NCBI GenBank assembly: GCA_020724905.1
Contig: DYGB01000001.1
Coordinates: 65,866-129,865 of the forward strand
Length of the DNA stretch: 64,000 bases
Direction of reading: 5' to 3'
From: Candidatus Paceibacter sp.
Lineage (GTDB): Bacteria > Patescibacteriota > Minisyncoccia > UBA6257 > JAGOQP01
This document shows, in pieces, positions 29,078 to 64,000 of the stretch. Each line of letters begins with the position of its first letter. Within the stretch, counting starts at the first letter, position 1. Position numbers and translations under genes: made by a program. A model generated the notes under the pieces. That model was given only the letters and a program-made list of their open reading frames with translations. It had not been told where the DNA came from and ran no database searches.

Positions 29078-29907
29078 TATTTTACAAGTTTAAGTATTGC
29101 TTTATGTAAAAAAGATCTAGCTTTTGTTGGAATTATAGCTTTTAGAAAAATATAGAAAAGATGAGAACACCTAATAAGTAGAGCTCTTTTGTGCTTTAAA
29201 AATATTTTTCTATTTTTAAAAATAATATGAGCTTTACCTTTTAGTTGCTTAAGATACCTTCCTTTGGTTATTTGATTCTTGTGTTTGTAGTAGATAGTGA
29301 GAGGTTCATCGATATAACAACCCTTGAGATTCCAACCTCTTACACTCCATTCATCGTCCTCTAACCCAATTAAATCTCTATCTTCATCAAAAAGCCCAAC
29401 TGATAAAAATGAATCTCTTCTATACACATGTGAACTTGGCACACTTACCCCTACACCAGCAAGTTTCAAAAAACTAAGTTTATCTGAACTAATACCAGAA
29501 AATCGTTTTATTTCTTTTTCTCCTGTGTCCAAATATTGAATTTCATCTGCTGTATAACAAAAATCAAATTCTTTATGTTTTTCTAAAAGAGAGATTTGTT
29601 TTTCAAGTTTCTCAGGATGCCACCCATCATCAGAATCAAGAAATGCTATATAATCACTCGAAGAATTATTTATGGCCTTATTTCTAGCGGCTCCTATCCC
29701 TTTATTCTCTTGAAAGAAATATTTTATCCTTGAGTCTGACTTTGACAATTCTCCAATGACTTCTTTTGAAGAATCAGTAGATCCATCATCAGTAATTAAG
29801 AGTTCCCAATTTTTATAAGTCTGAGCTTGCACACTTTTAATACACCGGGTAATAAGATCAGACCTATTAAATGTAGGAATTATTATTGATACCAGTTTAT
29901 TTTTCAT
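29077..29907 (-). CDS. Glycosyltransferase family 2
   Basis: VSIIIPTFNRSDLITRCIKSVQAQTYKNWELLITDDGSTD, plus a DSDD (DxD) motif. Confidence 0.8.
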   Translation of the reverse strand: MKNKLVSIIIPTFNRSDLITRCIKSVQAQTYKNWELLITDDGSTDSSKEVIGELSKSDSRIKYFFQENKGIGAARNKAINNSSSDYIAFLDSDDGWHPEKLEKQISLLEKHKEFDFCYTADEIQYLDTGEKEIKRFSGISSDKLSFLKLAGVGVSVPSSHVYRRDSFLSVGLFDEDRDLIGLEDDEWSVRGWNLKGCYIDEPLTIYYKHKNQITKGRYLKQLKGKAHIIFKNRKIFLKHKRALLIRCSHLFYIFLKAIIPTKARSFLHKAILKLVK

Positions 29908-30869
29908 GATGCTTTCTCTAAAGGATTTCTACTAATAAACCTTCTCTTTATAAAAGAAACCATACGATAAATCCTTGATCCAAAAAACGAAAGAAGAAGT
30001 AAGAAAAATATATACAAATTAAACTTTCTTTTTAGGACATCAACATACACACGTCTTCCAATACTCATTTTACCAGCAAGACAATAATAATTCCCAAGAA
30101 TTCTTTTATTAAACAATAATAAAGATTCTTCAAACTCATTATATTTAGCAACGTGTTTTTCTATAAAGTATTCGAGTTCTTTTGCCTTCTTTAAAAAAGA
30201 AAGCTTTTTCCCAGCACTATCAGGCCGAGAATGCCAAAAAAATAGTGCTTCACGAATATAACCAAATGAAAAGCCAGTAAATAAAATTCTAAGATATAAA
30301 TCTCTGTCATCACTCCATTTCATGTTCTCATCGAATCCACCAACTACATTAAAAACATCTCTTTTGATAATTACACTAGAACAAGAATGAATAAAATTTC
30401 TTTTTAAAATATTTTTTTTAAAACAATCCTGCAAAGCCATTGAGTCTTGGTATATTCCAAGGGGTCTGTTGTTAGTAATCACAAAAAAGTTAGAAGCAAC
30501 AAAATCAAATCCCCCCTCCAACAAAAAATTTACCTGTCTTTCAATTTTGTTTGTAACCCATTCATCATCGTGATCTAAGAAAGCAATAAACTCACCCTTA
30601 GACTTTTTAATCCCGATATTTTTAGGATGAGCAGGGCCACCAGAATTTTTTAAAAAACGTATAACTGAGATTCTAGCATCAATTCTTTGAAAATTTTCTA
30701 TAATGCGAACCGTTCCGTCAGTCGATGCGTCATCCACAACAATTAACTCCCAATTTGGATATGTTTGTCTTCTAACAGAAGATATAGTTCGTTCTATAAA
30801 CTCTTCTGCATTATGAGTAGGGATAATAATAGAAACAGAAGGAGTGTTATTTTTTTTTAAGTTAAACAT
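29904..30869 (-). CDS. Glycosyltransferase family 2
   Basis: VSIIIPTHNAEEFIERTISSVRRQTYPNWELIVVDDASTDGT, plus a DHDD motif. Overlaps the downstream GT2 gene by 4 nt. Confidence 0.8.
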   Translation of the reverse strand: MFNLKKNNTPSVSIIIPTHNAEEFIERTISSVRRQTYPNWELIVVDDASTDGTVRIIENFQRIDARISVIRFLKNSGGPAHPKNIGIKKSKGEFIAFLDHDDEWVTNKIERQVNFLLEGGFDFVASNFFVITNNRPLGIYQDSMALQDCFKKNILKRNFIHSCSSVIIKRDVFNVVGGFDENMKWSDDRDLYLRILFTGFSFGYIREALFFWHSRPDSAGKKLSFLKKAKELEYFIEKHVAKYNEFEESLLLFNKRILGNYYCLAGKMSIGRRVYVDVLKRKFNLYIFFLLLLSFFGSRIYRMVSFIKRRFISRNPLEKAS

Positions 30870-30980
30870 AGATAATATTTAAAAAAACATAATTCTCAAC
30901 CCTATGCAGCCTAACCTAGATTGTATAGTAACACACACTTAACTCAAGATATAGATAAATTAGAACGTCTTTATCTTTTC

Positions 30981-32432
30981 TTAAGAATTATAAAATAGAC
31001 CCTTCTTGTTTTTCGTTTTTGCCAAAAAATAAAAATATCTCAAATTAAAAATGCAGAAATACAAACCAAAAATACTAAGATACATAAAAATTTTTGTTCC
31101 AGTAAATAAAAACAATCCTATTGACAAAAAGAGAACGAAAAATCTAAACATTGAGACGCTTTTTTTAAACCTTTTTTCATCAAAGTTCTTTGCTAAAAAT
31201 ATTTCCTTTTTTATACCATATTGGATAGCATCGGGAATCATGCTATACACAACATAAAACAGCGGCGCTATCAGAAAATTTACACTCAGAACGGAAATGG
31301 GGACAGCTATTTTTATAATTCTTAACAGTGAAAAAGTTACTATCTTCACTTTTGAGTTTTCTTTCATCACATTATGCAAGAAAAAAATAAAAAGCGTCAG
31401 GAGAGAAGAGAGGAAGAAGTATAAAGCGATCCCTTTCAATACCGAAACGATACTAACAATGAAAAGGAACATGCTGAATTTTATAAATGCAAACAAAGGC
31501 AATCTGTCGCAAAACTTTTTTGTAGTTCTCAGGGTTGGATTTTTTTCACGCGATATTGCGAAACAATCATTCATTGCATATCCTATTTCATAAATACTGT
31601 AAAATCCGACAATGGCAATAAAAAACAACATGATATTTAAAAAAGAAAAAGGTATTTCTATCATAAAAAAATTCACTGCTTGGGGGAAGATAAACATCGA
31701 TATCAAAAAATCCTTGAGTGACAGAGAAGATCTTCTTCTATATAAATCGTAAGAAAACGGAGAAAAAAAAGAGTGTGTGCGAAACTCCGGGTTAAAGCTT
31801 GTAACAAATGTGTTTATACCAAAACCATTCCACCACTCCTTCTGAAATTTTAAATCCCAGCTATAACTATAGATAACGGCATTTGCTTTACCAAATAATT
31901 TAAGAAGTTCAACATCGCTCTTATTATCAGAAAAGCAAAACGATTTATCAAAATCTATATTCTTTTTCCATTCTTTTTCCGCAAAGATTTCCTGCTTCTT
32001 TCCGAGTAAATCTTTTTTTAAAACACCAGTACATCGATTATTGATAAAATCAAGTTCCGACGATTTCCAATTGTCAAATCCAAGTTTACGAGCAAATACC
32101 TCGGCAGTGCAATCTATTGTTCCAGAAATAAGTAGAGTTTTATATCCTTTCTCCTGTAAAAGAATGGATTTTTCAACTATTTCATTGTTTAAATATTTTT
32201 TTGAATATTCAAAAAAATCCTCCGTTCCTTTTCTGAGATCTTCTCGAGAAAACCCCTCTAGAAGATTCAACGATTTTTTTCGAAAATCAAAAATAAATTT
32301 TAATTCCCGAAAAATAAGGAAAAATGCATATCTTATTTTTGAACGTCTCCACAAAAAATAACCTATAAAATCAAAGGTTGTATTTACATTTACTAAGGTA
32401 TCATCAAGGTCAAAAACAGCGATTTTTCTCAT
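30981..32432 (-). CDS. Fusion protein: N-terminal HAD-superfamily hydrolase plus a C-terminal polytopic membrane domain (divergent UbiA-prenyltransferase-like)
   Basis: HAD motif I at the N-terminus (IAVFDLDDTLVN). The C-terminal ~230 aa have 7-8 TM helices and a UbiA-like block (YAMNDCFAISREKNPTLRTTKK) in which the usual Asp residues are partly replaced. Confidence 0.5.
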   Translation of the reverse strand: MRKIAVFDLDDTLVNVNTTFDFIGYFLWRRSKIRYAFFLIFRELKFIFDFRKKSLNLLEGFSREDLRKGTEDFFEYSKKYLNNEIVEKSILLQEKGYKTLLISGTIDCTAEVFARKLGFDNWKSSELDFINNRCTGVLKKDLLGKKQEIFAEKEWKKNIDFDKSFCFSDNKSDVELLKLFGKANAVIYSYSWDLKFQKEWWNGFGINTFVTSFNPEFRTHSFFSPFSYDLYRRRSSLSLKDFLISMFIFPQAVNFFMIEIPFSFLNIMLFFIAIVGFYSIYEIGYAMNDCFAISREKNPTLRTTKKFCDRLPLFAFIKFSMFLFIVSIVSVLKGIALYFFLSSLLTLFIFFLHNVMKENSKVKIVTFSLLRIIKIAVPISVLSVNFLIAPLFYVVYSMIPDAIQYGIKKEIFLAKNFDEKRFKKSVSMFRFFVLFLSIGLFLFTGTKIFMYLSIFGLYFCIFNLRYFYFLAKTKNKKGLFYNS

Positions 32433-33352
32433 TTTTTAAAAACAAAATTTCCTCCGTATTCTTTAATATTTGATAGATCTCCTTCTATCTCATGGATATC
32501 TCCATTTTCATCAATATAATGTGATTTATATCCCATATTTCGAAGAAGTCCTACGGCCTTCATCGATATGTTTTTTCCCATATTACCACTCCATACCTCA
32601 AGAATTACAATAGGAGAATTGCTTCTTAGAAAAATTTCTCCTCCTTCAAGTACTGATTTCTCCCCACCCTCCACGTCTATTTTCAAAACCGAGGGGGTTA
32701 TGTTTTTAGATTTTATGTACGAATCCAATGTTATCGTATTAATATTATGTGATTCAGAATAATTCCAACTTTCCCATTCTTTCATATTAACTGTATCTTT
32801 ATTTAATGTGCTTATACCAGAGTTTTCTTTTGAAGTATACAGCTTTGATCTTCCTGTAAAACTTGAAATTGCTAAATTCTCAATAAATGTATTTTCTCTT
32901 TTCCCATTTTTGAGAAGAAAATAAAAAACCTTTGTGTTCGGCTCAAAAGAACATACCTTCTTGCAAATTTCTTGAGCGAGATATGTATAAAATCCATAAT
33001 TTGCCCCTATATCAAAAAATACGTCGTTTCCTTGAAGATTCTTAATAAGATACTTTACAAGTCGAAATTCCTCATCGTTTCCACTCGGAAATCCAAAAAC
33101 AAAAATTCTAAATGACTCCCAATCTAATACGGGAATTCTAATAAATTTTCCAAAGACAAGTTTTATATCTCTTTCTCTTCTCCCTAAAACACCAAGTTTA
33201 AAAAGAAGAGAATAAAAATATAGCTTAGGAAAAGAAAAAAGTCTTTTTATTTTCTTTTTAAAACCTGGTCCAGATATTTTTTCTAATCTCTTTTTATTTT
33301 CTTCTGTCTTTTTCAATAAAGACAAAAAGATAATTGTTTTAGGATTTGACAT
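32429..33352 (-). CDS. FkbM-family methyltransferase (Methyltransf_21)
   Basis: VFFDIGANYGFYT SAM-binding motif and a ...KIDVEGGE... block, typical of FkbM. Confidence 0.75.
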   Translation of the reverse strand: MSNPKTIIFLSLLKKTEENKKRLEKISGPGFKKKIKRLFSFPKLYFYSLLFKLGVLGRRERDIKLVFGKFIRIPVLDWESFRIFVFGFPSGNDEEFRLVKYLIKNLQGNDVFFDIGANYGFYTYLAQEICKKVCSFEPNTKVFYFLLKNGKRENTFIENLAISSFTGRSKLYTSKENSGISTLNKDTVNMKEWESWNYSESHNINTITLDSYIKSKNITPSVLKIDVEGGEKSVLEGGEIFLRSNSPIVILEVWSGNMGKNISMKAVGLLRNMGYKSHYIDENGDIHEIEGDLSNIKEYGGNFVFKK

Positions 33353-33848
33353 ATATAAATTATATCTTCTAATCTATTCCAATTTAAGAACATGTTTTTT
33401 TAATGATGGTCCGAGTCTAAAATTACCATTACTTTATCATTGTCACTTATTAGTTCTCTATATCTATAATTTCTTTTGGTGTAGATGAACCGGATAAACA
33501 TTTTATTCTTTTATGTCTTGGTTTATCTTTTCTACCTTTGATATCTATCGTTATTATCTTCCTATTATTTACTAAATCACATATAAAAGCATGGGGCACT
33601 TCTTTCGTGTATAGTCCCAAGTTTAGTCATTATATATTGTATGTGGTCTTATTTCAAAAATTTGTATACGTCCACCACTTTTTTGAGACTCCTTCCTGTA
33701 TTGAGAGGTGTCTGTATCATACACTGAAAGGGAGAGAGAAGACCTTTTGTTCCTTTCCATGTATTGAAACACATCATATATGAGCCCTACAAGACAGCCT
33801 CATGTATGTGAACTTATGTAATATTAAATACAAATTTAACAAAAAACC

Positions 33849-34637
33849 TCATAAATATATAACTCCTATACCCGCCCATCCTTGGCTATAATCATGTACT
33901 AATTCAACATTTCTATGTTCACCTTTAATTTCATCCCAGAAAGAATTAACTTCACAACCAGAATCTTTGGAATGAACACAAATATCATGAAATGCAATAA
34001 TTCCACCATTTTTTACAAGTCCGCTATATAGCTGGAAATCTTTCTTCACTCCTTCATAAGAATGATCCCCGTCTATGAAGAGAAAATCAATCTTTCTTTC
34101 TTTTAAAATGTCTTTAATCTGGTTTATCATACTACTAGAATGAGAATCCCCCCTTAAAAGAAAGAGACTCTGCTTCTTCTTTGTAAAAGATCTAAAAAAG
34201 GGAGATTTCACTTCTGAGTACCCTCCCCCAAAATCACCGCCTGGAAGATCTATACTTATCAAAGTTGCTTCATCTAAGCCAAGTTTAGAAAAACAAAAAA
34301 GCGTTCCTCCTCTAGCAGTTCCGATCTCAACTACCACCTTTGGTTTTTGTTCTTTATAGCGCACGAGTAAATCTAAAAATTCTGAGTCAACCTGCATAGG
34401 AGCAAAACTACTAAAAAAAGATTCTTTTATAAAATTAAATACATCAACCTCATTGGTGGAATTAAAGTTTGCTATTTTCCTTACTACATATCTCTTAAAC
34501 AAAAACAAATACAAATTAATAAGAAATATTTTTATTCTAAAAAACATTGCCTTGCCTATACGAAAAAGTAGATAAAAAAATCCTTCGCTTTCTAAAATTT
34601 TCTTAATTTTTCCTTTATTGTTTTTTAACAAATCCAT
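33849..34637 (-). CDS. Class I SAM-dependent methyltransferase (Methyltransf_24 / CmcI-TylF-like O-methyltransferase)
   Basis: VVEIGTARGGTLFCFSKLG...FIDGDHSYEGVKKDFQLY...GGIIAFHDI is the hallmark arrangement of this family. Confidence 0.75.
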   Translation of the reverse strand: MDLLKNNKGKIKKILESEGFFYLLFRIGKAMFFRIKIFLINLYLFLFKRYVVRKIANFNSTNEVDVFNFIKESFFSSFAPMQVDSEFLDLLVRYKEQKPKVVVEIGTARGGTLFCFSKLGLDEATLISIDLPGGDFGGGYSEVKSPFFRSFTKKKQSLFLLRGDSHSSSMINQIKDILKERKIDFLFIDGDHSYEGVKKDFQLYSGLVKNGGIIAFHDICVHSKDSGCEVNSFWDEIKGEHRNVELVHDYSQGWAGIGVIYL

Positions 34638-34713: not shown

Positions 34714-36882
34714 TTATCCAACAAACTGAACATCCCTCCACTCTCCAGAATTAATATACTCCCTAATCATATCGAGCCCCTCTTTCCTATCAGGCCTAAT
34801 ATATTCTAACCAATCAGCAGCTTCTAAGGCCCGCTCTTTATTCCTTTCCTTATAATAATGCTCTAACAGTGTATACACAACAATATCAGACCCATTGTGG
34901 TTCTTTACCTGTGCTGGATTCAATTCCATGCCCTCCTTAACTTCTTCGAATGCTTTTTCAAACTCCCCTTGAGCAGCATGGAGCGTAGAAAGAACAAAGT
35001 GACCACTTGCAACTCGCTCTTCTAATCCTAGTGTATATTCCATAACTTCAAAAGCCTCATCATATCGATCCTGACGAGCAAGATTTAATGCAAGGGCATA
35101 TTGTACATCCTGTCTTTGAGGAGAAAGTTCAATTGCTTTACGAAATGCTTCTTCAGCATCACTATAATATTCAACAAGACCTCTCTTCCCTAACTCCTCA
35201 TATGCTTCCCCAATTTTCACATAATACCGAGGATTATACGGTTCAACCGACGTTACCTCTTTCATCTTCTCAATAGCTTGTAGTAAGAGCTGTTTTTCAC
35301 TTTCTTTACCTTCATAGATATCAATTGCATTTCCAATAAAGTGGGTGCGGATAACATTCTGAGCATAGGTATAAGGAGTAAAGTACTCCTTAACACCCTC
35401 AGAAAGCTCTGAGGCGCTCATTTCCCCACGAGTAAAGGATATATACCCTTTCACCTGAAAAAATGGAACAACAGTCCAGGCGATAAAGCTAAAGACAAGA
35501 AACAGCCCTACAACCCCCACTTTCCCAGTAACCATCCATGAAGGGATGTGATTGGAAAGTTTTTCTGTAAGGGTACATTCAAATCGTTTCTCGTGTAGTA
35601 AAGGAAGAGTAGCAAGGGCAATAAATGAGAAGAACGGAATATAGGTAACAACAGAATCAAATACAAATAAGTTCTGGATAAAATACGCAACACCAAAGAA
35701 TAAAAGAGAAGAAGAAATCATTGATACTTTCTGACGAATAATCTGCCACAGCGCAACAATCCACATTCCCATATACGCAAGAAATCCAAGGAGTCCCTGC
35801 ATGACAAGCACATCAAGTACCTTGTTGTGAGCCCTATCAAACCATGCTTGTTCATAGACAAAGTATTCAGGATTATAGTGCGCATTATACGCAATATGGT
35901 AGTTTTCCTGTCCCCATCCAAAAAGAAACGTGTCCCAGCCATTTTTTACAGGATTCATTGCATCAAGACTCACCCCAATAGCAATTAAACGAGTCTGCAC
36001 TGTTGCATTATCAAAGGTAATTTGAGAAAGACGATCAAGTCCAGGAATTGTTTTCCATACATCAGCATCTCTCATGGTGAAAAATAGTCCTCCCCCAAGG
36101 ACAAAAAGAATAAGAATTCCTCCTCCAATCTTTTTAAGATGTGGAGATACATGCTTCCCTTTTATATATACATAAAGAGCAACAACGAACAGTCCACCCA
36201 AAATACCAACCATAACTCCCCGAGTCTCAGTTACAATAATTCCAAATAAAGATATAAATATAACAAGGGTAGAGATAAGTTTCCAAAATGATTTTAACGC
36301 CTGAGGATACCCACTATCTTTCCGATACTCATGCATCACAAGTAAGCTTGAAAGGATCACAAAAAGAAACACAACAGCAAGATAAATAGCATTCCCAGTA
36401 TATGAAGATGGACGTTCTTGTCCTCCAAGAAACTGAACCATTTCATGGATAAAAAGAGCCACCCCTGAAAACATGGTTAACTGAAAAAAACGAATCCAAT
36501 GTTTCCATTCAAATAGCACAAGAGCTAGTACATAGAACCCAAAGAAATATAGTATCCCTAAAAAGCCTTCACCTCTTTCTAGATCTCCAAAAAATGCACG
36601 GTACATATCTGGAGCAAATAAAACACTTATACCAACAAAAAATAAAAAGAGGGATGTAAGTATGAATATTTTTTGAGAAAATAGAGTCTTTAGTCTCTCA
36701 ACTACTTCTTTTCTAAATACAGAAGATCGCATCATCGCTATCCCAAGAAGTAAAAAGACTGTGGAAACAACCCCCTGCACAAAAAGAACTTTCCCGCTTA
36801 CAAAAGGAAAGAATAATGACTTAGAAGTAATAAGAGGAACAAATGCCAAAAGCAATAAAAGGAATCGAGATATACTTTTCAT
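34714..36882 (-). CDS. O-antigen ligase-like (Wzy_C) polytopic membrane protein with C-terminal TPR repeats
   Basis: About 12 TM helices, including a Wzy_C-type loop (TETRGVMVGILGG). The C-terminal ~220 aa are soluble and TPR-like (YYVKIGEAYEELG..., AEEAFRKAIELSP...). Confidence 0.75.
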   Translation of the reverse strand: MKSISRFLLLLLAFVPLITSKSLFFPFVSGKVLFVQGVVSTVFLLLGIAMMRSSVFRKEVVERLKTLFSQKIFILTSLFLFFVGISVLFAPDMYRAFFGDLERGEGFLGILYFFGFYVLALVLFEWKHWIRFFQLTMFSGVALFIHEMVQFLGGQERPSSYTGNAIYLAVVFLFVILSSLLVMHEYRKDSGYPQALKSFWKLISTLVIFISLFGIIVTETRGVMVGILGGLFVVALYVYIKGKHVSPHLKKIGGGILILFVLGGGLFFTMRDADVWKTIPGLDRLSQITFDNATVQTRLIAIGVSLDAMNPVKNGWDTFLFGWGQENYHIAYNAHYNPEYFVYEQAWFDRAHNKVLDVLVMQGLLGFLAYMGMWIVALWQIIRQKVSMISSSLLFFGVAYFIQNLFVFDSVVTYIPFFSFIALATLPLLHEKRFECTLTEKLSNHIPSWMVTGKVGVVGLFLVFSFIAWTVVPFFQVKGYISFTRGEMSASELSEGVKEYFTPYTYAQNVIRTHFIGNAIDIYEGKESEKQLLLQAIEKMKEVTSVEPYNPRYYVKIGEAYEELGKRGLVEYYSDAEEAFRKAIELSPQRQDVQYALALNLARQDRYDEAFEVMEYTLGLEERVASGHFVLSTLHAAQGEFEKAFEEVKEGMELNPAQVKNHNGSDIVVYTLLEHYYKERNKERALEAADWLEYIRPDRKEGLDMIREYINSGEWRDVQFVG

Positions 36883-36969: not shown

Positions 36970-38826
36970 TTATTTATTTACGTATACGTCAGCTGTTTTG
37001 AATGTATCTGACATATATGTTGAGCTGTAGGTCATAGTAGCAGCATCTACGTCATCTGCATCATCCCAAACAACGCTTGCAAGATAGAAGTGGTAATAAG
37101 CTGCTGCTCCGATGCTTGCTTCACCAACGGCGAAGTTAACAGCGAAAGTAGCGGTTGAACCATCACTAATCTTATAAGAGTTTGTCAATGATGTTACACC
37201 TGAAGTTGGCTCCTGGTAAGAAACGCTTACGCCAGTTGTTGTAGCATATGAAGAGCTTGCAACAACGATAGAGAAACCACTTGTCTTAGGGATGTATACA
37301 TCACCTCCGTTAGCTGTTACTGAGATGTTGAATGAACCAGTCAATGTTCCTGATGCAACATCTGTTGCTCCTGTCCAGCTCACTGATTTGCTGTTAAGAG
37401 CAAAGCTAGGAGCTGCTGCAGAGATGTACATTACATCAGAAGAAGCTGAACCAGAAATTGAACTAGTTACTCCTCCTTCTGAGTTGTAAGAAACGATTGA
37501 TGATGTTGGTACAGAAGATACTGTTGATGTAGCAGCTGCTGCTGTTGCACCACTGTAGCTAACTTTCAAAGTAAGTGTCTTTGTTGTGTCTTTTGCAACA
37601 TGCAAGATATCTTCCATGTCACTAAAGGTAGCAACGTTTGAAGTTACTTCTGCTGATGCCAATAATGATGATCCATCATAAAGGTATGCAACTGTTTCTG
37701 TAGCCAATCCACCGAAGTTCATTACGATTTGGTCAACCTTTGCCATATCATCCTTTGTTTTAAGGTCAAGAGCAAAGATTGTTGCTTCTGTAACGTCACC
37801 CTGACTGTTTGCAACAATAGCTGTTGAAGCAGGTGAGTTTGCACTCTTTGAGATTGTCAAAGAAGCGGTATCAGCTAAGTCACTATTAATAGTGAATGCT
37901 CGGCTAATAGGGTTTGATGGTCCATACTGATTAATACCAGCTGCGTCCATTGCACGTACTCCATTTTCAGGAACAGTCAATGTTGTTGAAACAGCGTATG
38001 TTGATTCTACTGTTGAGTAGATATCAACTTTTACAGTAAGAACTTTTGTTGTGTCCTGAGGAACAACAAAGTTAAGACCTGTGAAGTAGATGTAGTAGTC
38101 ACTTCCTTCCTTGATAACTGAACTTGAGTTCAAGTCAACTTTCTGAAGAAGTGATGATCCATCATAAAGACCAAGAGCTGTCATTTGCTTTGTGTAAGCT
38201 GTGATAGCTGATCCAATCTTTACTTTCACACGTTCAACTTTAAGATCTGAGTTCTGGGCTTTAACTTTAATACCCATTACTGCAGCATCACTGTCACCTT
38301 CATATACCTTTGTTCCTGCTGCTGGTGATGGGTTCAATTCAACTGTCATGATACCTTCATCTCCAGAAAGAGCTGGTGTTGGGGTAGCTGTAGGTGATGT
38401 TGTAGGTGATGTTGTTGGAGTTGGTGTTGTTGCAACCATAGCATTAAAGTGTGCTCGGGTTACTGGACCAAAGTATCCAACTGCTGGTGAAATACCAACT
38501 GAAGCTTGATAGCTTGCCAACGCTGCTTTAGTCAAAGGACCAAAGTATCCTGTTGGGTTTACTTTCAAGAATCCTTTTTCAAAAAGGAATTGTTGAAGAG
38601 CGCTAACATCTGCACCTTGTGAACCATCTGTGAGGTTGCTGTTGTAGGTGTATAATGCTGTGCTTCCTCCTGTACTTCCGCTATTTAGCTGTGTTTGCAA
38701 TGCTTGAATCTGTGAAAGAAGAGCAGCAATTTGTGCTTGCAATTCTTCTACAGTCTGAGCTTGTGCTGGAACTGCTGTTCCAACAACTGCAAGAGCTAAA
38801 GCGAATAATGCAACTTTTTTTAACAT
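36970..38826 (-). CDS. Secreted cell-surface (S-layer-like) protein with a peptidoglycan-binding domain, a Pro/Thr-rich linker and a large beta-rich domain
   Basis: Signal peptide (MLKKVALFALALAVVGTAVPAQA) and a coiled-coil. PG_binding_1 (DVSALQQFLFEKGFLKVNPTGYFGPLTKAALASYQASVGISPAVGYFGPVTRAHF). Linker TTPTPTTSPTTSPTATPTP. T/S/A-rich C-terminal part. Confidence 0.75.
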   Translation of the reverse strand: MLKKVALFALALAVVGTAVPAQAQTVEELQAQIAALLSQIQALQTQLNSGSTGGSTALYTYNSNLTDGSQGADVSALQQFLFEKGFLKVNPTGYFGPLTKAALASYQASVGISPAVGYFGPVTRAHFNAMVATTPTPTTSPTTSPTATPTPALSGDEGIMTVELNPSPAAGTKVYEGDSDAAVMGIKVKAQNSDLKVERVKVKIGSAITAYTKQMTALGLYDGSSLLQKVDLNSSSVIKEGSDYYIYFTGLNFVVPQDTTKVLTVKVDIYSTVESTYAVSTTLTVPENGVRAMDAAGINQYGPSNPISRAFTINSDLADTASLTISKSANSPASTAIVANSQGDVTEATIFALDLKTKDDMAKVDQIVMNFGGLATETVAYLYDGSSLLASAEVTSNVATFSDMEDILHVAKDTTKTLTLKVSYSGATAAAATSTVSSVPTSSIVSYNSEGGVTSSISGSASSDVMYISAAAPSFALNSKSVSWTGATDVASGTLTGSFNISVTANGGDVYIPKTSGFSIVVASSSYATTTGVSVSYQEPTSGVTSLTNSYKISDGSTATFAVNFAVGEASIGAAAYYHFYLASVVWDDADDVDAATMTYSSTYMSDTFKTADVYVNK

Positions 38827-59182: not shown

Positions 59183-60463
59183 TTAGAGCTCATCAAGTAA
59201 TGAAGGTTCGTGTTGAGGGATATATGAACTGTCGGTAGGTAAAGAAAGAGTAAATATAGAGCCACGTTTAAGCTCAGAGATAACACTGATATCTCCCCCG
59301 TGACCTCGTACAATATTACGAGCAATATAGAGCCCAAGTCCCGTACCATCAGCAACGGCTCGCATTGCATTCTCTGCTCTGAAAAACTTTCCAAAGAGTT
59401 TATCTATTTGATCTTGAGGAATACCAATTCCAGTATCTTCAATAGATATGGTAACAAATCCTTCTTGACCCTCTCCGATACGAACAGTAATCTCTCCATT
59501 CTCAATATTATACTTAAGTGCATTGTCTAAAAGATTTAAAACAACCATTCGCATCTTTTCTTTATCGATAACAACAGATACGTCTTGCGCAGGACGATCA
59601 AAATACAATTTTATCCCACTCTCTTTTGCAAGTGGATAGACCTCTTTGAGTAGTTCATCAAGGTAGGATACGAGTGGTACTGTCTCAAATGAATATCCAA
59701 ACTTCCCTTCTTCTATCTTAGATACATCAAGTAAGCTATTAACGGTACGTAATGCATTTTCAATAGCTGCTTTTCCTGTATCAACAAGTTCTTTTTGAGA
59801 ATCAGTTAACGTCTCATCATGAAGTCCTTCAAGAGCCCAGTTGGTAGCGGTAAGAGGAGTACGAAGCTGATGAGCAGCAACACCAATAAATTCTGTTTTT
59901 GAACGAAGTAGTTCAGCTTCTCGTGTTTTATTTACAAACAATTTTACAAACGCTACCACCTTCCCCTCACCATCAATGACTCGCTGTGTTGTGACACGAA
60001 TATTAAGAGGAGGATCGGTAAAGATGACATCAGCAACAGAAGGATATTCCCCAGAAGCAGTTCTCCTAATAACTGCAGGAGCAAGGGTAAGGAATACACA
60101 CTGAATAAATCGTTGCATCTTTGTATCAGAAGCCTGTGAGGCATCAAGTTTCTTTGGCATATCAGATGAAGAAAGTCCAAACATATCTTCAAGTTCTTTG
60201 TTTGCCTTAAAGACACGGAATGATGAATCATATACAAGCACCCCCACAGGAGCATGTTCCAAGATAACCCTACTCAATGATTCTCCTATAGAAGACATCT
60301 CTCCAACACGTGAAGCAAACAGAGTTCTTTCAATAATAATACCAAGCGCTATAAGTGCTCCAAGAATAATACTAACAGCATTCCAAGGAGAAGGAATAAA
60401 AAAAGAAGCTCCAATAAGGAGAATTGATAAAATTCCTCCACTGTATGCAAATATGCTATTCAT
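59183..60463 (-). CDS. Sensor histidine kinase (2 TM helices, a PAS-like segment, a DHp H-box, and HATPase_c)
   Basis: H-box AAHQLRTPLTA, N-box LLDNALKYN, and G-boxes DTGIGIP / GTGLGL. No response-regulator gene is adjacent. Confidence 0.85.
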   Translation of the reverse strand: MNSIFAYSGGILSILLIGASFFIPSPWNAVSIILGALIALGIIIERTLFASRVGEMSSIGESLSRVILEHAPVGVLVYDSSFRVFKANKELEDMFGLSSSDMPKKLDASQASDTKMQRFIQCVFLTLAPAVIRRTASGEYPSVADVIFTDPPLNIRVTTQRVIDGEGKVVAFVKLFVNKTREAELLRSKTEFIGVAAHQLRTPLTATNWALEGLHDETLTDSQKELVDTGKAAIENALRTVNSLLDVSKIEEGKFGYSFETVPLVSYLDELLKEVYPLAKESGIKLYFDRPAQDVSVVIDKEKMRMVVLNLLDNALKYNIENGEITVRIGEGQEGFVTISIEDTGIGIPQDQIDKLFGKFFRAENAMRAVADGTGLGLYIARNIVRGHGGDISVISELKRGSIFTLSLPTDSSYIPQHEPSLLDEL

Positions 60464-61637
60464 GAGAAATATCTAGTCTATACAATTTACTATCAAGTCG
60501 ATTAATAAAGTAAAAGAAACCATTTCGTGTAACTGGACTGGTTATATCTAATGAAATATTTTTGCCTCCAAAAATAAGTTCTGAAGAAGAGTCTTGAAGA
60601 TTAAACATATATATTTCATCTTTTGTATATAAATTCCTCTGCATATAACTATCAGGTAATTGTATTCCAGAATCTTTGCTTAGAATATATGGGACTCCGC
60701 AAATCATAGAATTATCTCCATCAAAGACACACTTTGAAGAAATGGTTGAAAGGGATAGTGTTGATGGGCTGGCCGATCCATCAATATCAAATACATCTAT
60801 CCGTATAGTTAATGGATTTAAGCTAGAGAATCTTGCTAGATAGTTCTGATTATCAGTTAATACATCTAACCCCTTTCCAGAAAATAACTTCGTCATTCTA
60901 TGTGTAGAAGTGTTAAAAATCCATGCAGTACCATAGAAGTTGTAAGATGTGGACGGATAGAGTAAAAGAGATGTATTTTTAATCCATACAACATTCATAT
61001 CAGTAAACTTAAATTGAGCCTCTACCTGAACATCATCAATATCATCCACATCAAAAATAGAGACGGTATATATTCCTTCTGACCTATTAGAAAAAACAAT
61101 CGAGCTTTCATCTGGTGAAAAAGATGCTGACGAAAAAGAATATGGAATACTTGTCCAAGCCTCTTTTTCAGAATCAAATAAAAATATTCCGCTATCAAAC
61201 CAGACAAGTGCAAACGAACCAAGTTTACTAACAACAACTTTGTACGGATTTAACCTTGGAAGATTTTCAACCACAACTCCATCTTCCTGAGTATGTTTCA
61301 CTAAACTATTCTGAGAAATAAAGAAAATATTTTCTTCCTCGTTCTCACTGTATATCCAAAAATAATCAGCCTGTTTGTCAGACACAATACTAAGAACTCC
61401 CTGTTCTTGAGTAAAATCATCTTCTGTATCTACGTTAGAAAAGGGAACCGCTTTATATTCAGAATCGATATTGGAACCACCGCCCGAAACATCTCCTATC
61501 GGTGCCGTAGGAAAGCCAGTCTGAGTTGGTTGAGGAGATAAAATGACAGAAACATTCTGAAGGCCGAAATAAACCCCTACAGCAATAGCAAGAAGGATTA
61601 CGATAATGATAAATATTGTGAGAAATTTTTTATTCAT
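60456..61637 (-). CDS. Membrane-anchored extracytoplasmic protein, beta-propeller-like (TolB/PD40-like) fold suspected
   Basis: N-terminal TM helix (LTIFIIIVILLAIAVGVYF) followed by beta-strand-rich W/Y/F-x-S/D repeats. Overlaps the kinase gene by 8 nt. Confidence 0.45.
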   Translation of the reverse strand: MNKKFLTIFIIIVILLAIAVGVYFGLQNVSVILSPQPTQTGFPTAPIGDVSGGGSNIDSEYKAVPFSNVDTEDDFTQEQGVLSIVSDKQADYFWIYSENEEENIFFISQNSLVKHTQEDGVVVENLPRLNPYKVVVSKLGSFALVWFDSGIFLFDSEKEAWTSIPYSFSSASFSPDESSIVFSNRSEGIYTVSIFDVDDIDDVQVEAQFKFTDMNVVWIKNTSLLLYPSTSYNFYGTAWIFNTSTHRMTKLFSGKGLDVLTDNQNYLARFSSLNPLTIRIDVFDIDGSASPSTLSLSTISSKCVFDGDNSMICGVPYILSKDSGIQLPDSYMQRNLYTKDEIYMFNLQDSSSELIFGGKNISLDITSPVTRNGFFYFINRLDSKLYRLDISHE

Positions 61638-61640
61638 ATT

Positions 61641-62717
61641 CTAGAAATGCATATGAATGTGAAATCCACCAATCACCCTTCCATCAGAGGTAAACACATC
61701 GTTGACTGGAAACGCCTTACCTCCCTTATCAAAGAAAACACTTGGATTGCTCCCTCCTTGATTCCTAGCTTCATTGTAAAATGCATCTTTATACCACTGC
61801 CAAATAGCTTTCTTTTCTTCTCTTGTTAAGTTTGACGCGGTAGATACTGGAACAACATCAGCGGCTCTACCTAAATAGTGATACGATGATTCGGCATGAT
61901 TATCTCCTGTAAGACTCGTTATCCTAAAATTAGGAATTTTACTCTTTTCAAGGGAAAAAGAGGATCCTTCAAGATTAATAACAACAACTCCTTCTTCCTG
62001 AGATAGTTGTTTCTGTTTATTTTTTACATTTAGTAATGTGGCTAATATGCCTTCGGTCACATACACGGGTGTTCCTTCACAACTATATGAACCCTCTTCT
62101 GTCCCAGAAACAATATTAAGACCACCAGAAGTACACAAATTTTCGTCAGTCGTACATCCACGAGCGCACACAAAAGGAAGTTCGCCATTTTCCATGTCTC
62201 TAAGATTTGACTGTGGAGTCGCACCAGCGAAACATTGATCAGTTCCAGATAAATCAACTCCTGAGGCACGGAGTGACGTTGCTAACTGGATAGCATTCTC
62301 ATTTTTATTTTCCCATTCACAAGAAATCTCTGAAGAATTTGGTGGAGCTGCTCCCTCAGGTAACTCTTGTTGAGTAAGTGCAGGATTTCTCAACTCGACA
62401 AGATTTGGATTTATTGTATTAAGAATGAGAAACGCCCCAGCGAGAAGAACAAGCCCCCACACAGCACTCTTTATAATGTCCTTGGCGTCTCCTTGGGCTG
62501 ATACATTTCCAGCAGTAACAACATATTTAATACCACCAAAAACAATCATAATAACAGCAAGGGTTCCTGCTATTCCTAAGATGTACAGATAAAAATTGTT
62601 CACAAGGCTTGCAGGATCTCCTGATTGAGTAAACGAAGGAAGCTCTAAACGATACTCATCTGCAAAAGCATTTTTGATAGAGAAAAGTGATGCAACTAAT
62701 AAATAAAAAAGTGACAT
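61641..62717 (-). CDS. Fusion protein: N-terminal TrbC/VirB2-like pilin domain, a Cys-rich linker, and a C-terminal LAS-family (peptidase M15) peptidoglycan peptidase domain
   Basis: Signal peptide (MSLFYLLVASLFSIKNAFA). Two hydrophobic helices separated by a short polar loop (NFYLYILGIAGTLAVIMIVFGGIKYVVTAG-NVSAQGDAKDIIKS-AVWGLVLLAGAFLILNTI), matching the VirB2/TrbC pilin layout. C-terminal motifs SSYHYLGRAADVVP (SxHxxGxAxD) and terminal GGFHIHMHF (HxH) match Peptidase_M15_3. Confidence 0.65.
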   Translation of the reverse strand: MSLFYLLVASLFSIKNAFADEYRLELPSFTQSGDPASLVNNFYLYILGIAGTLAVIMIVFGGIKYVVTAGNVSAQGDAKDIIKSAVWGLVLLAGAFLILNTINPNLVELRNPALTQQELPEGAAPPNSSEISCEWENKNENAIQLATSLRASGVDLSGTDQCFAGATPQSNLRDMENGELPFVCARGCTTDENLCTSGGLNIVSGTEEGSYSCEGTPVYVTEGILATLLNVKNKQKQLSQEEGVVVINLEGSSFSLEKSKIPNFRITSLTGDNHAESSYHYLGRAADVVPVSTASNLTREEKKAIWQWYKDAFYNEARNQGGSNPSVFFDKGGKAFPVNDVFTSDGRVIGGFHIHMHF

Positions 62718-62719
62718 AA

Positions 62720-63421
62720 TTATTTTATTCTAAATTGCTCATAAAACGTAGCAGAGGAAAATAATCCCCCTTCTTGATTTACCGAAATTTCAATAGGGAA
62801 GATACGACCCCTTACCCCTTCTTCTGGAATAGAGACATTAAGGGTATATTTCGAATCAGCCTCCACCGGAACTTCTTTACCATTTACTTTCCATGACACC
62901 CTAAGTGCATTGGGATCAATGTTAAAGAAAAAAGGATACACAGAAAGAAAAAGCTTTTCACTAGGAAGTACATCAGGGACAAATTTATGATAGTCCACTA
63001 CAACACGAGGAGCAACAATAGGAATAGATTCATGGTGATTTATATTATAGGAACGACCCAGTTCAGAGTCATAGTAATCAACAATACTAACTCGTACAGA
63101 AAGAGTTTTGTCAGGATAATCTTTATTCCTAACACGAACACTCTGCAGTCCATTCTCTTTCTTAACAAAGTCATCGTTAATATACCATCGCACCTCTTTA
63201 TTAGAGATATCAATAAGACTTCCTTTTAATGCTCCATTTTGTTCAACAACTTCAAAAGAAATATCTATGTCACTATCATATGATGGAAACGCCTTCCCTT
63301 CATACCATGATGGTGTTATTGTCTGTGCCTGCCAAGAGAAAATGATTTCTGGTTCTTTCGCAAAAACAGAGCCAGAAGACATTAGAAATATAGAACCCAC
63401 CAGTAGTAGAAAAAACTTCAT
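62720..63421 (-). CDS. Hypothetical secreted protein (signal peptide; beta-rich)
   Basis: MKFFLLLVGSIFLMSSGSVFA is a cleavable signal peptide. No recognisable domain. Separated from the neighbouring gene by 3 nt. Confidence 0.45.
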   Translation of the reverse strand: MKFFLLLVGSIFLMSSGSVFAKEPEIIFSWQAQTITPSWYEGKAFPSYDSDIDISFEVVEQNGALKGSLIDISNKEVRWYINDDFVKKENGLQSVRVRNKDYPDKTLSVRVSIVDYYDSELGRSYNINHHESIPIVAPRVVVDYHKFVPDVLPSEKLFLSVYPFFFNIDPNALRVSWKVNGKEVPVEADSKYTLNVSIPEEGVRGRIFPIEISVNQEGGLFSSATFYEQFRIK

Positions 63422-63461
63422 TATATCTAGTATATCATCTCAAAAAAATAAGATAAACTGT

Positions 63462-63863
63462 CTATTTTCCATGAACTCCTCCCCTTGGGGTTATAGCATT
63501 AGCAAGACCCATATATTTTCCCCATTTTTCAGGATTATTAGTAGCTAAGATAGTGAGAATAATAACAATAGTCCTTGTTGGAGAGATATCTAAAAACGGT
63601 ATAAGCTCTATTCCATTTGCTATAGCATTCCTACTCACAACGCGTGGAGTTCCTTTAAGATACAGGTACAAAAGCGTCGGTAGTCCAATAAGAAAATCAA
63701 CCAAAAAACCAACGATTGCACCAACACCCGTTATATCAAGAATTTCGAGAGCATCTCCTATAAGATTGAATGAAATAAGAAAAAAACTCTCAACAAAACC
63801 AAACCTATGGTTATCTTGAATAACGGGAATATTGGATTCTATAGCCTTTTCTTCATTGTCCAT
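63462..63863 (-). CDS. Hypothetical small membrane protein (2-3 TM)
   Basis: 133 aa with hydrophobic segments (FFLISFNLIGDALEILDITGVGAIVGFLVDFLIGLPTLLYLYL). No recognisable domain. Confidence 0.4.
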   Translation of the reverse strand: MDNEEKAIESNIPVIQDNHRFGFVESFFLISFNLIGDALEILDITGVGAIVGFLVDFLIGLPTLLYLYLKGTPRVVSRNAIANGIELIPFLDISPTRTIVIILTILATNNPEKWGKYMGLANAITPRGGVHGK

Positions 63864-63866
63864 AGC

Positions 63867-64000
63867 GTATTATACCTGCTCACCATCCTTACGTAATAAA
63901 TCTCGAGGATTTGTAGTAATAATTTTGTCTTCAAAATAGGAAGCAACAACTTGCATAGCAACATGCTGAAGCCCAGCAAAGAAAAGTCCCTGTCCCACTC
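63867..64000 (-). CDS. C-terminal fragment of a minus-strand gene continuing beyond the window
   Basis: Open frame ending at a TAA at 63864-63866 (...GLFFAGLQHVAMQVVASYFEDKIITTNPRDLLRKDGEQV*). Its identity cannot be determined. Confidence 0.3.

Follow-up and report, generated by a model that had tools for sequence, protein, structure and literature searches.

The gene at positions 61641-62717 (minus strand) of the window, i.e., the whole 64,000-nucleotide stretch of Candidatus Paceibacter sp. DNA that was analysed, encodes a 358-residue protein which, as read from sequence and modelled structure, joins a T4SS pilin-like membrane hairpin to a zinc peptidase of the Hedgehog/DD-peptidase fold with predicted cell-wall activity. 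The best explanation, to which a probability of roughly 0.55 is assigned, is that this protein is a cell-wall peptidase dedicated to the T4SS and tethered by its pilin hairpin, and as such a functional analogue of VirB1 and PrgK. The protein would fill the pilin slot of the Paceibacteria-type T4SS and also bear the cell-wall peptidase of the system. Such a fusion represents the standard, lineage-wide pilin gene of the Patescibacteria T4SS in this group, which hints at the route of the machine through the wall. An earlier note on this DNA had regarded the fusion as unusual, which does not hold within this lineage, where 127 of the top 150 C-terminal domain family representatives carry the pilin module.

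The fusion gene and its T4SS locus

The ORF list contains a single frame, from ATG to stop (stop codon at 61641-61643), that fills exactly 61641-62717, which confirms the coordinates given previously and places the gene on the minus strand; the plus-strand translation of the same interval is stop-ridden. Since the identical 358-residue protein is called on four independent contigs from three samples, the fusion gene is considered real. In total, 44 homologues of the fusion protein were retrieved, of which approximately 11 are full-length.

The fusion gene is the third gene downstream of virB4, co-directional with its neighbours and separated from them by intergenic gaps of 2-3 nt. The 3' end of virB4, which encodes a 587-residue ATPase, occupies the last 131 nt of the window (63870-64000, minus strand), with the rest of the cluster lying past the window edge; locus L001 and the window share 12,360 nt at 100% identity, and the last ORF of the window corresponds to the VirB4 C-terminus. 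The search beyond the 64 kb boundary that the earlier note had advised proved productive: VirB4, VirB3-like PrgI, TraC-like and TrbL/VirB6-like genes are located directly upstream of the fusion gene (Pfam scores in the cluster: P-loop_TraG, 105.9 bits; AAA_10, 48.6 bits; PrgI, 29.9 bits). The gene is therefore encoded with the T4SS core genes VirB4, VirB3/PrgI and VirB6, as is expected of a PF18895 pilin. The order VirB6-PrgI-TraC-VirB4-x-x-pilin-x-kinase is conserved in approximately 12 Paceibacteria MAGs as a block of 11-13 genes, at identities down to 35%.

Between virB4 and the fusion gene are located the genes for a 133-residue membrane protein (g133; 63462-63863, minus strand), without a family match and syntenic in most related loci, and for a 233-residue secreted protein (g233; 62720-63421, minus strand), without a Pfam or NCBIfam family, whose stop codon lies 2 nt before the start of the fusion gene and which is found at this position in 12 related loci. 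The downstream neighbour g393 (60456-61637, minus strand) starts 3 nt after the fusion gene, is syntenic in all related loci and encodes a 393-residue protein with an N-terminal TM segment, for which only faint beta-propeller-like matches were obtained (TolB, Aladin and Tricorn_N, all sub-threshold). It is followed in every related locus by a PAS-HisKA-HATPase histidine kinase gene (59183-60463, minus strand; HATPase_c 101.4 bits, HisKA 51.3 bits), which closes the conserved block.

The rest of the window represents housekeeping chromosome. No coupling protein, relaxase or T4P genes are present among its ten largest ORFs, and Rfam and tRNA scans of the window returned one tRNA-Leu and no Rfam family. 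A Mur ligase gene in the locus and a gene for a MurJ-like flippase in the window indicate that the organism makes peptidoglycan.

This chromosomal setting would suit a housekeeping carboxy- or endopeptidase of peptidoglycan, anchored by two ordinary TM segments and situated beside the T4SS by coincidence and without a role in secretion. Such an explanation is nevertheless very improbable, as the position between virB4 and g393/kinase is kept in the same set of approximately 12 MAGs despite identities as low as 35%, the anchor scores above the T4SS_pilin cut-off and has diverged far less than the enzyme, the fusion itself is retained by the large majority of the best family representatives (the 127 of 150 given above), and at one related locus (L013) the slot holds a pilin without an enzyme.

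The N-terminal pilin-like hairpin

The protein starts with a predicted Sec signal peptide (residues 1-19, 62661-62717, minus strand), read from the sequence as MSLFYLLVASLFSIKNAFA|DE and with a putative AxA site (…KNAFA|DEY). This stretch is 10-42% identical among homologues, weak conservation being usual for signal peptides. It precedes the pilin-like two-helix hairpin (residues 27-112, 62382-62639, minus strand), defined by the PF18895 match and the AF2 helices (residues 35-67 and 72-102) and including a conserved post-helix motif, T-I-N-P-x-L-V-x-L-(K/R)-N-P. Kyte-Doolittle peaks are centred at approximately 47-63 and 89-98, with a polar, charged loop in between. The layout is that of VirB2/TrbC proteins, i.e., a signal peptide and then two hydrophobic helices with a polar loop, and was correctly described before except for the loop, which at ~15-18 residues is not very short. 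Following Sec export driven by the signal peptide, the two helices would insert as a hairpin with the loop in the cytoplasm, which would leave the C-terminus outside the membrane.

The hairpin matches the Pfam T4SS_pilin model PF18895 with 36.6 bits (gathering score, 26.6) over residues 38-101, corresponding to profile positions 8-70 of 71, and the same match is found, as a precomputed result, in every full-length homologue; based on this profile the N-terminal module is assigned to the Patescibacteria 'T4SS pilin' family. The more specific designation as a VirB2/TrbC-type pilin stands as regards the PF18895 match and the T4SS context, but not as regards TrbC/VirB2 PF04956 (16.4 bits against a gathering score of 27.9) or NCBIfam PRK13857 (17.3 bits against a cut-off of 103), both of which are sub-threshold. 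A single-sequence PDB search returned VirB2 only at E = 0.2-0.3, a 21-sequence hairpin profile searched against the PDB found no solved VirB2/TraA pilin and just generic TM helices, and Foldseek gave weak matches only, to archaeal conjugative pili (8dfu, TM 0.70, E = 6). Because PF04956 is sub-threshold and the profile finds no solved VirB2/TraA, the term 'VirB2-type' is supported by context and not by homology.

The fusion gene is the sole pilin-module ORF within the window and in each Paceibacteria-type locus, the sequence covered for this organism being ~74 kb of a 145-181 kb contig; tblastn and HMM searches of the window detected neither a further pilin module nor a further LAS domain. Furthermore, the hairpin is 55-90% identical among homologues whose C-terminal domains are only 24-58% identical.

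These two observations also bear on a different explanation, i.e., that the protein is an enzyme-bearing structural pilin, the hairpin of which polymerises via the T4SS to give a pilus or a short conduit, while peptidases on its surface or tip digest the wall of the host, allowing the epibiont to attach to or tap that host with the exchangeable C-terminal domain as a host-range cassette. As the fusion gene is the only pilin-module gene in the cluster, any pilus in this lineage must involve its product, and the unequal conservation of the two modules is in line with a polymer core of packed hairpins and an exposed domain that evolves fast; indeed, the extreme conservation of the hairpin and the sole pilin gene are no less compatible with a structural, polymerising role than with that of a mere tether. 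The single slot with differing appendages or none is likewise consistent with this possibility, and the flexible linker would permit external display. In solved conjugative pili the pilin termini point outward, and F-pilin tolerates C-terminal additions, both of which are counted in its favour, while reviews have speculated about a conduit to the host formed by the T4SS and pilus of the Patescibacteria. However, a domain of 250 residues per subunit is hard to fit into the VirB2/TraA helical packing, homology to solved pilins is not demonstrable with the hairpin profile against the PDB, and no T4SS pilus has been reported for any member of the Patescibacteria. A structural pilin is thus considered possible but rather unlikely, and tethering of a dedicated peptidase remains the preferred explanation.

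The hairpin is followed by a flexible linker (residues 113-132, 62322-62381, minus strand) of low pLDDT and low identity: AF2 assigns pLDDT values below 50 to residues 109-128, and the linker is 10-42% identical among homologues and P/T/S/G-rich in relatives. A strongly conserved motif right after helix 2, followed by a disordered segment, would fit a pilin precursor with cis-acting maturation, in which the C-terminal peptidase self-cleaves, trims or cyclises the pilin near TINPxLVxL(K/R)NP, resembling the C-terminal processing of TrbC by TraF. RP4 TrbC indeed illustrates that VirB2-type pilins may undergo C-terminal processing. Self-directed ('cannibalistic') peptidase activity has furthermore been described for Shh (PMC6027127). 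The TINP motif is, however, kept in a stand-alone, peptidase-less pilin of 145 residues (L013) and in SLT and lysozyme fusions unable to cut peptides, and is therefore not a site specific to the LAS enzyme; moreover, LAS enzymes cut D-amino-acid-containing or Gly-rich wall peptides and not ordinary protein linkers. Little probability is consequently left for self-processing.

The C-terminal LAS domain and its active site

The predicted extracytoplasmic region consists of a Cys-containing N-terminal subdomain (residues 133-215, 62073-62321, minus strand) and a LAS (Hedgehog/DD-peptidase) zinc-peptidase core (residues 216-358, 61644-62072, minus strand), the boundaries of both being approximate. 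All six Cys residues reported previously were found (positions 133, 162, 184, 188, 195 and 213); those at 162, 184, 188 and 195 are family-wide, and those at 133 and 213 are lineage-specific. The core harbours the sequence S-L-T-G-D-N-H274-A-E-S-S-Y-H280-Y-L-G-R-A-A-D287 (residues 268-287, 61857-61916, minus strand), which comprises the H-X6-D zinc motif and the upstream catalytic His; D330 (61728-61730, minus strand), the acidic residue at the position of the catalytic E177 of Shh according to column conservation and the Shh alignment; and H-I-H (residues 353-355, 61653-61661, minus strand), representing the H-X-H zinc/catalytic motif and located four residues from the C-terminus. The earlier note had recognized both LAS motifs, S278-Y-H280-Y-L-G283-R-A-A-D287 and H353-I-H355-M-H-F, which are indeed present, but had allotted them to some 80 residues, whereas the catalytic domain spans ~230 residues in two subdomains.

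Conservation was counted across 38 relatives that are merely 22-35% identical to the query. H280, G283, D287 and H353 are invariant (38/38), H274, S268 and Y281 are kept in 37, position 355 carries H in 36 relatives and D in two, and the D330 column contains E in 33, D in four and Q in one, so that the query carries Asp at the catalytic-acid position where the family usually has Glu. A Cys at position 329, found in 32 of the 38 members, is absent from the query; both departures weigh against the peptidase reading. On this alignment the putative active-site motifs are conserved far above chance expectation, and the presence of the set in 36-38 of 38 relatives is counted in favour of a peptidase.

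Hh/DD-peptidases have been defined by H-X6-D, H-X-H and E177 of Shh (PMC6027127), to which H280-X6-D287, H353-I-H355 and D330 correspond in the query. In a PDB search, the zinc block 268-287 aligns with Shh GHHSEESLHYEGRAVD and the family 'C-E' with Shh 'YYES', the alignment spanning H135, H141, D148 and E177 of Shh. Structure comparison likewise returned the LAS/Hedgehog-DD-peptidase fold, with Hedgehog N-domains as the closest solved relatives by both sequence and fold. The family adds a bacterial branch with a zinc-site block nearly identical to that of Sonic hedgehog.

The M15_3/VanY-like membership that had been proposed could not be upheld. The Pfam models applied to the C-terminal domain were PF08291 Peptidase_M15_3, PF02557 VanY, PF13539 Peptidase_M15_4 and PF01085 HH_signal; the full-length query gave no M15, VanY or HH_signal match at E <= 1, the C-terminal domain alone scored 13.3 bits against 25 with Peptidase_M15_4 (E = 0.13), and the best E-values over 11 homologues (M15_4, 0.0089; M15_3, 0.16; HH_signal, 0.021) are all sub-threshold. 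As no curated model of these kinds reaches its threshold, family-level substrate specificity is not transferable. The comparison set comprised the Hedgehog N-domain, 'bacHh' (Roelink 2018, PMC6027127) and the MEROPS M15/LAS enzymes VanX, VanY, Zn DD-peptidase, MepA and the phage T5, Ply500 and LysB4 endolysins; unlike these, the fusion domain is below every Pfam family threshold, possesses an extra Cys-rich N-terminal subdomain and a ~20-residue insertion between the acidic residue and H-X-H, bears its H-X-H at the very C-terminus and is attached to a pilin hairpin. It represents an unmodelled family with at least 486 representatives at 50% clustering, for which current annotation reads just 'pilin' or 'hypothetical'.

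Hedgehog domains function chiefly as ligands, and whether they are active peptidases is a matter of debate (PMC6027127). The kinship with such ligands might point to a non-catalytic wall-binding protein or adhesin, the LAS-fold zinc cleft of which would bind a peptide stem or host surface polymer and so anchor the T4SS or pilus to the wall. In tandem-domain homologues, furthermore, the second copy has lost H-X-H (RIHV, RIRV or RIYV at the C-terminus), indicating that binding-only versions of the LAS domain have evolved. The query family nevertheless keeps the full catalytic set, i.e., the general acid/base position and both extra histidines, at the frequencies given above, while known non-catalytic LAS domains such as Drosophila Hh have lost these active-site residues (PMC6027127). 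Copy 1 of every tandem protein examined also retains the H-X5-H-X6-D zinc block, and its match ends at an intact H-X-H/D in seven of ten and stops short of the motif in three. A purely binding function is on balance improbable.

In the preferred reading, that of a tethered peptidase, the disordered linker of ~20 residues would hold a disulfide-stabilised ectodomain of two subdomains, in which H280, D287 and H355 are the predicted Zn ligands and H274, D330 and H353 would aid catalysis. The peptidase would cut peptide stems or cross-links of peptidoglycan beside the VirB4/VirB6/VirB3-like machine and so open the wall for the apparatus, a task that is performed by VirB1 (SLT) or PrgK/TraG (SLT + CHAP) in other T4SSs. 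The highly conserved hairpin would keep the enzyme attached to the T4SS or pilus, or make it part of that structure.

Known systems and exchangeable appendages

Described PF18895 pilins include those of the essential array SEML1_0014-0019 of Ca. Southlakia epibionticum (Wang et al. 2023, PMC10633639; Quinonero-Coronel et al. 2025, PMC12102498). Like the Patescibacteria VirB2-like pilins, the fusion protein combines a signal peptide with a two-helix hairpin passing PF18895, and its gene lies in a chromosomal, relaxase-less cluster flanked by ksgA, close to virB4, prgI and virB6-like genes. Described pilins are, however, unfused proteins of ~100-185 residues that often occur in arrays of 2-11 paralogues, whereas the fusion is a single gene with a predicted enzyme ectodomain of 250 residues and no other pilin gene in its cluster; no description of a pilin-peptidase fusion was found in the literature searched.

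A partial counterpart is SEML1_0007 of Ca. S. epibionticum, an essential 1113-residue protein encoded beside VirB4, with a C-terminal Hedgehog/DD-peptidase domain (structure-based annotation, Table S2, PMC10633639); the adjoining SEML1_0006 has lysozyme and cysteine-protease domains (PMC10633639). The fusion protein shares with SEML1_0007 the fold at the extreme C-terminus and the location beside virB4 in a Patescibacteria T4SS, but SEML1_0007 has three times the size. An internal PF18895 hairpin also occurs in large members of the family (P0121, P0092 and P0115). Of these, P0121 was rejected as a stand-in for SEML1_0007, as no virB4 lies within 8 kb of its locus, and it adjoins an SLT_2 gene.

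Wall hydrolases encoded in T4SS operons are represented by VirB1 (SLT) in Gram-negative systems and by PrgK, TraG(pIP501) and TcpG (SLT + CHAP) in Gram-positive systems; they are membrane-anchored in the Gram-positive cases and are presumed to make a local opening in the wall for the machine. The fusion protein shares this operon location, but differs in chemistry, being a predicted zinc LAS peptidase of another fold instead of a glycosidase or cysteine amidase/peptidase, and in its anchor, a pilin-family hairpin instead of a plain N-terminal TM segment. No SLT, CHAP or NlpC/P60 domain was matched in the query (Pfam, NCBIfam), although close pilin homologues are fused to SLT (P0024, 39.9 bits) or SLT_3 (P0037, 33.5 bits), and the link to VirB1/PrgK is therefore one of functional analogy and not of membership. 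The ideas raised in the earlier note, i.e., a lytic-transglycosylase surrogate and an inter-cell attack factor, remain the two leading hypotheses for function, and the data are compatible with either.

In the one species tested, epibiotic growth requires the Patescibacteria T4SS, whose role has been described as completely unknown. According to a 2025 survey, most Patescibacteria with VirB2-like pilins have no recognisable VirB1, which raises the question of how the system copes without it and, furthermore, why VirB2-like pilins occur in a monoderm-type T4SS (PMC12102498). The fusion family bears on both puzzles, since in a large lineage a wall-hydrolase domain is part of the pilin-slot gene itself. 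It also offers testable reagents: a soluble ectodomain of ~230 residues whose model is of high confidence, a defined set of active-site residues and, as a control, a natural pilin that lacks the enzyme.

The appended domain is swapped between hydrolase classes, the cassettes in the pilin slot comprising Hedgehog-type LAS, tandem LAS, an HWD-type domain, SLT, a lysozyme-like domain or, as at L013, none; as the slot can hold a pilin without an enzyme, the constant element is the pilin and not the peptidase. It may be speculated that the Paceibacteria T4SS has a filament or conduit built from or capped by peptidase-bearing pilins, i.e., an enzymatic 'drilling' pilus whose C-terminal cassette sets which host walls can be breached, although this is more doubtful still than a structural pilin as such. 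The 'HWD/HWH' appendage (alignment A5) yielded no PDB or Pfam identification, and hhalign aligned it with the query domain at E = 4e-4 but only 34% probability. It displays an invariant H…D…E-x-x-H pattern, which is reminiscent of VanX/VanY.

The fusion protein and its family

The open reading frame at 61641-62717 was confirmed as a single ATG-to-stop frame of 358 residues; its strand, left unstated in the earlier note, is minus, the plus-strand frame being broken by many stops. Gene calls on four contigs, which come from three samples independent of one another, give the identical 358-aa protein, so the gene is real. A signal-peptide-like start (…KNAFA followed by DEY) precedes two long hydrophobic helices, both as described in that note, at residues 35-67 and 72-102 of the full-length AlphaFold model, with which the hydropathy peaks concur. 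The suggested TrbC/VirB2 relationship held in part: PF04956 fell short of its threshold (16.4 versus 27.9 bits), while residues 38-101 matched PF18895, T4SS_pilin, above the gathering score (36.6 versus 26.6 bits). NCBIfam VirB2 and the mycoplasma ICE pilin-like family gave weak matches only. With a single-sequence query the top PDB match was Agrobacterium VirB2, weakly (E = 0.2-0.3); a 21-sequence profile of the pilin module lost this match and retrieved generic membrane helices only, and Foldseek with the full-length model returned only weak likeness to archaeal conjugative pili. Homology to experimentally solved pilins was thus not demonstrable by PDB sequence and profile searches or Foldseek. 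Judged from its sequence, the hairpin genuinely belongs to the Patescibacteria ‘T4SS pilin’ family, the name ‘pilin’ resting on architecture and genomic context.

The C-terminal domain comprises approximately 230 residues rather than the ~80 first estimated, and contains both motifs originally quoted. All six cysteines reported are present (133, 162, 184, 188, 195 and 213), of which only four are conserved family-wide in a 38-sequence alignment. With the full-length protein neither Pfam nor NCBIfam gave a peptidase match, and the C-terminal regions of eleven homologues, scanned alone, gave sub-threshold matches only, all within one clan (Peptidase_M15_4 in 5/11, M15_3 in 2/11 and HH_signal in 1/11). 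In the PDB, the best matches to an 11-sequence profile were the N-domains of Sonic, Indian and Desert hedgehog (E about 1e-3); a 38-sequence profile, its members 22-35% identical to the query, reached E = 2.3e-6 for hedgehog, with phage M15C endolysins next (E about 0.1). The hedgehog alignment extends from the GxHSxxSxHYxGRAxD block as far as the acidic counterpart of Shh E177, and the AlphaFold model of residues 128-358 has a mean pLDDT of 93.4 and a pTM of 0.90. H280, D287 and H353 are conserved in all 38 sequences and H274 in 37; an acid occupies position 330 in 37 (33 Glu and 4 Asp, the query among the latter), and position 355 is His in 36 and Asp in two. These columns agree with the published Hh/DD-peptidase definition of H-X6-D, H-X-H and an E177 equivalent, residues that are lost in the non-catalytic Drosophila Hh (PMC6027127), and on this basis the domain is predicted to carry a zinc site of the LAS fold, maintained by strong purifying selection. 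That the protein is instead a binding-only adhesin is less likely, as the catalytic set is fully conserved. The proposed M15/LAS assignment is thereby sustained by the LAS-type zinc motifs and the Hedgehog profile match, and not by curated membership, since threshold scans place the domain outside every curated M15 or Hedgehog Pfam family; its own family has no Pfam model, and its members are publicly annotated as ‘pilin’ or ‘hypothetical’.

An exhaustive profile search over 1.84 billion cluster representatives returned 486 proteins with E <= 1e-3, of which 125 had E <= 1e-10. Among the 150 best matches, HxxGxAxD is kept in 147, together with the downstream Hx[HD] in 145, and 127 also possess the pilin module, most of the others being fragments; the fusion, initially considered unusual, is thus how this domain normally occurs and not a one-off. 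Two variants were observed. Tandem proteins of ~600 aa (P0048-P0060 and P0113, about 550-640 aa; also at loci L009, L010, L012 and L015) carry two C-terminal domains, the first with an intact H-X5-H-X6-D block in all ten examined, while the second has lost H-X-H (ending RIHV, RIRV or RIYV), with the first His replaced by Gln in several, and is probably degenerate and binding-only. In five large proteins of 695-1156 aa (P0121, P0092, P0115, P0109 and P0080) the PF18895 hairpin is internal, following a long N-terminal region and directly preceding the LAS domain; all but P0080 (25.3 versus 26.6 bits) pass the cut-off, and P0121 (locus L022, 8001-11471) has an SLT_2 gene and a Y1 transposase, rather than virB4, as neighbours.

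A T4SS cluster with a constant pilin and an interchangeable appendage

The window ends inside virB4 (63870-64000, minus strand, encoding the VirB4 C-terminus), and locus L001, taken from a JGI contig of 145 kb, matches the window at 100% identity along 12,360 nt. In transcription order, the combined cluster consists of ksgA (RrnaAD), g261, g603, a VirB6-like (TrbL) gene of 774 aa, g247, PrgI (VirB3-like; 29.9 bits, above GA), a TraC-like N-terminal ORF (L001 6423-7082; 219 aa), the VirB4 ATPase (L001 7085-8848; 587 aa; P-loop_TraG 105.9 bits, AAA_10 48.6 bits), the membrane protein g133, the secreted protein g233, the fusion gene, g393 (an N-terminal TM segment and faint TolB/Tricorn-like beta-propeller matches), a PAS-HisKA histidine kinase and, last, CTP synthase. 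The fusion gene is flanked by gaps of only 2-3 nt, and some dozen MAGs labelled Ca. Paceibacterota or Wolfebacteria share this gene order, with fusion proteins only 31-59% identical to the query. The division of VirB4 into two ORFs is kept in all related loci. The genes g133, g233, g393 and the kinase (59183-61637 and 62720-63863, minus strand) are conserved together with the T4SS core, in constant order, in ~12 Paceibacteria-type MAGs (L004-L018); the first three received no family assignment from Pfam or NCBIfam, and the presence of the kinase hints at signal-dependent regulation. Of the T4SS genes anticipated beyond the window edge, VirB4 and a VirB6-like gene are thus present, while neither a coupling protein nor a relaxase was found in the 10 kb upstream or in the window's ten largest ORFs, in agreement with published accounts of these systems (PMC12102498). 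No second ORF matching the pilin-module HMM occurs in the window or in these related loci; Saccharimonadia loci, by contrast, hold arrays of short pilins, matching their description in the literature (PMC12102498).

The slot between g233 and g393 is variously occupied by the hairpin with a LAS domain, single or tandem, by the hairpin alone (L013; 145 aa, its module 52-62% identical to the query N-terminus by tblastn), or by the hairpin with another domain ending HWD/HWH (L011 9896-10843, L014 9917-10789 and L016 104-1042). The last domain, of ~170 aa and also found in P0013, P0017-P0019 and P0025 with the same pilin module and slot, is invariant at two Cys and in a VanX/VanY-reminiscent pattern, H…D…E-x-x-H(W)(D/H). 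It gave no significant Pfam or PDB match; this residue pattern, and its weak alignment with the query C-domain in a profile-profile comparison (E = 4e-4, probability 34%), hint that it, too, is a LAS-type peptidase. Fusions to SLT (P0024; 39.9 bits versus GA 21.3) and to the lysozyme-like domain SLT_3 (P0037; 33.5 versus 27 bits) occur among other close homologues of the pilin. The motif T-I-N-P-x-L-V-x-L-(K/R)-N-P, just after helix 2, is retained in the enzyme-less pilin and the SLT fusions, which makes it less likely that the enzyme is a cis-acting pilin maturation domain.

Proposed role at the secretion system

Across one and the same set of protein pairs, identity is 55-90% in the hairpin and 24-58% in the C-domain, the extreme being P0005 (89.5% versus ~30%). 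Were it no more than a membrane anchor, the hairpin would not be the region under tightest constraint; to judge from these identities, it must make many specific contacts, to itself or to the T4SS. This conservation, together with the synteny, also renders less likely a housekeeping peptidase whose T4SS neighbourhood is coincidental.

We favour, with a probability of roughly 0.55, the reading that the fusion protein is a zinc peptidoglycan peptidase dedicated to the T4SS and held at the machine by its hairpin. Following signal peptide cleavage the N-terminus would lie outside, helix 1 would run inward across the membrane and helix 2 outward, and the linker and Cys-containing ectodomain would be extracytoplasmic, with which the four conserved Cys, probably forming two disulfides, are consistent. 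The peptidase would then take the role played by VirB1 or PrgK in other systems. This reading draws on the sister pilin fusions carrying glycosidase-type wall hydrolases, and on S. epibionticum, in which virB4 is adjoined by an essential protein with a Hedgehog/DD-peptidase domain and by a lysozyme/cysteine-protease protein (PMC10633639). Furthermore, according to a 2025 survey, most Patescibacteria with VirB2-like pilins have no recognisable VirB1 (PMC12102498), and peptidoglycan synthesis genes are present in the organism (locus and window). The main rival, in which the hairpin polymerises and the enzyme is displayed on a pilus attacking the host wall, fits the hairpin being the sole pilin of the cluster, the conserved core with its variable exterior and the cassette-like appendage; steric considerations and the fact that no pilus has been observed leave it rather improbable.

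The Patescibacteria T4SS with its VirB2-like pilins and pilin arrays (PMC12102498, PMC10633639), its essentiality and the peptidase and lysozyme genes next to virB4 (PMC10633639), and the LAS/Hh-DD-peptidase superfamily including bacterial members (PMC6027127) have been described previously, while no earlier account of the conserved pilin-peptidase fusion or the variable-appendage slot was found in the searchable literature. The role proposed here comes from computational analysis, and an expert scanning domain architectures could have foreseen the fusion. The finding offers a concrete, testable tie between wall penetration and the enigmatic pilin of an essential, uncharacterised secretion system.

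Other features of the window

A low-GC island at 28000-34000 (GC 0.30-0.32 versus ~0.40 elsewhere) lies in a run of minus-strand ORFs, beside polysaccharide genes encoding a Polysacc_synt/MurJ-like flippase (25313-26782) and an O-antigen-ligase-like (Wzy_C) protein bearing TPR repeats (34714-36882). A 618-aa protein (36970-38826, minus strand) with an N-terminal PG_binding_1 domain (34.8 bits), the rest without family match, is a further candidate cell-wall-active protein. The 1435-aa ORF at 9815-14122 (minus strand), whose sole match is a sub-threshold PKD at the C-terminus, is probably a giant surface protein, and within it the 2-kb block 10001-12000 shows the only positive GC skew of the window (+0.105).
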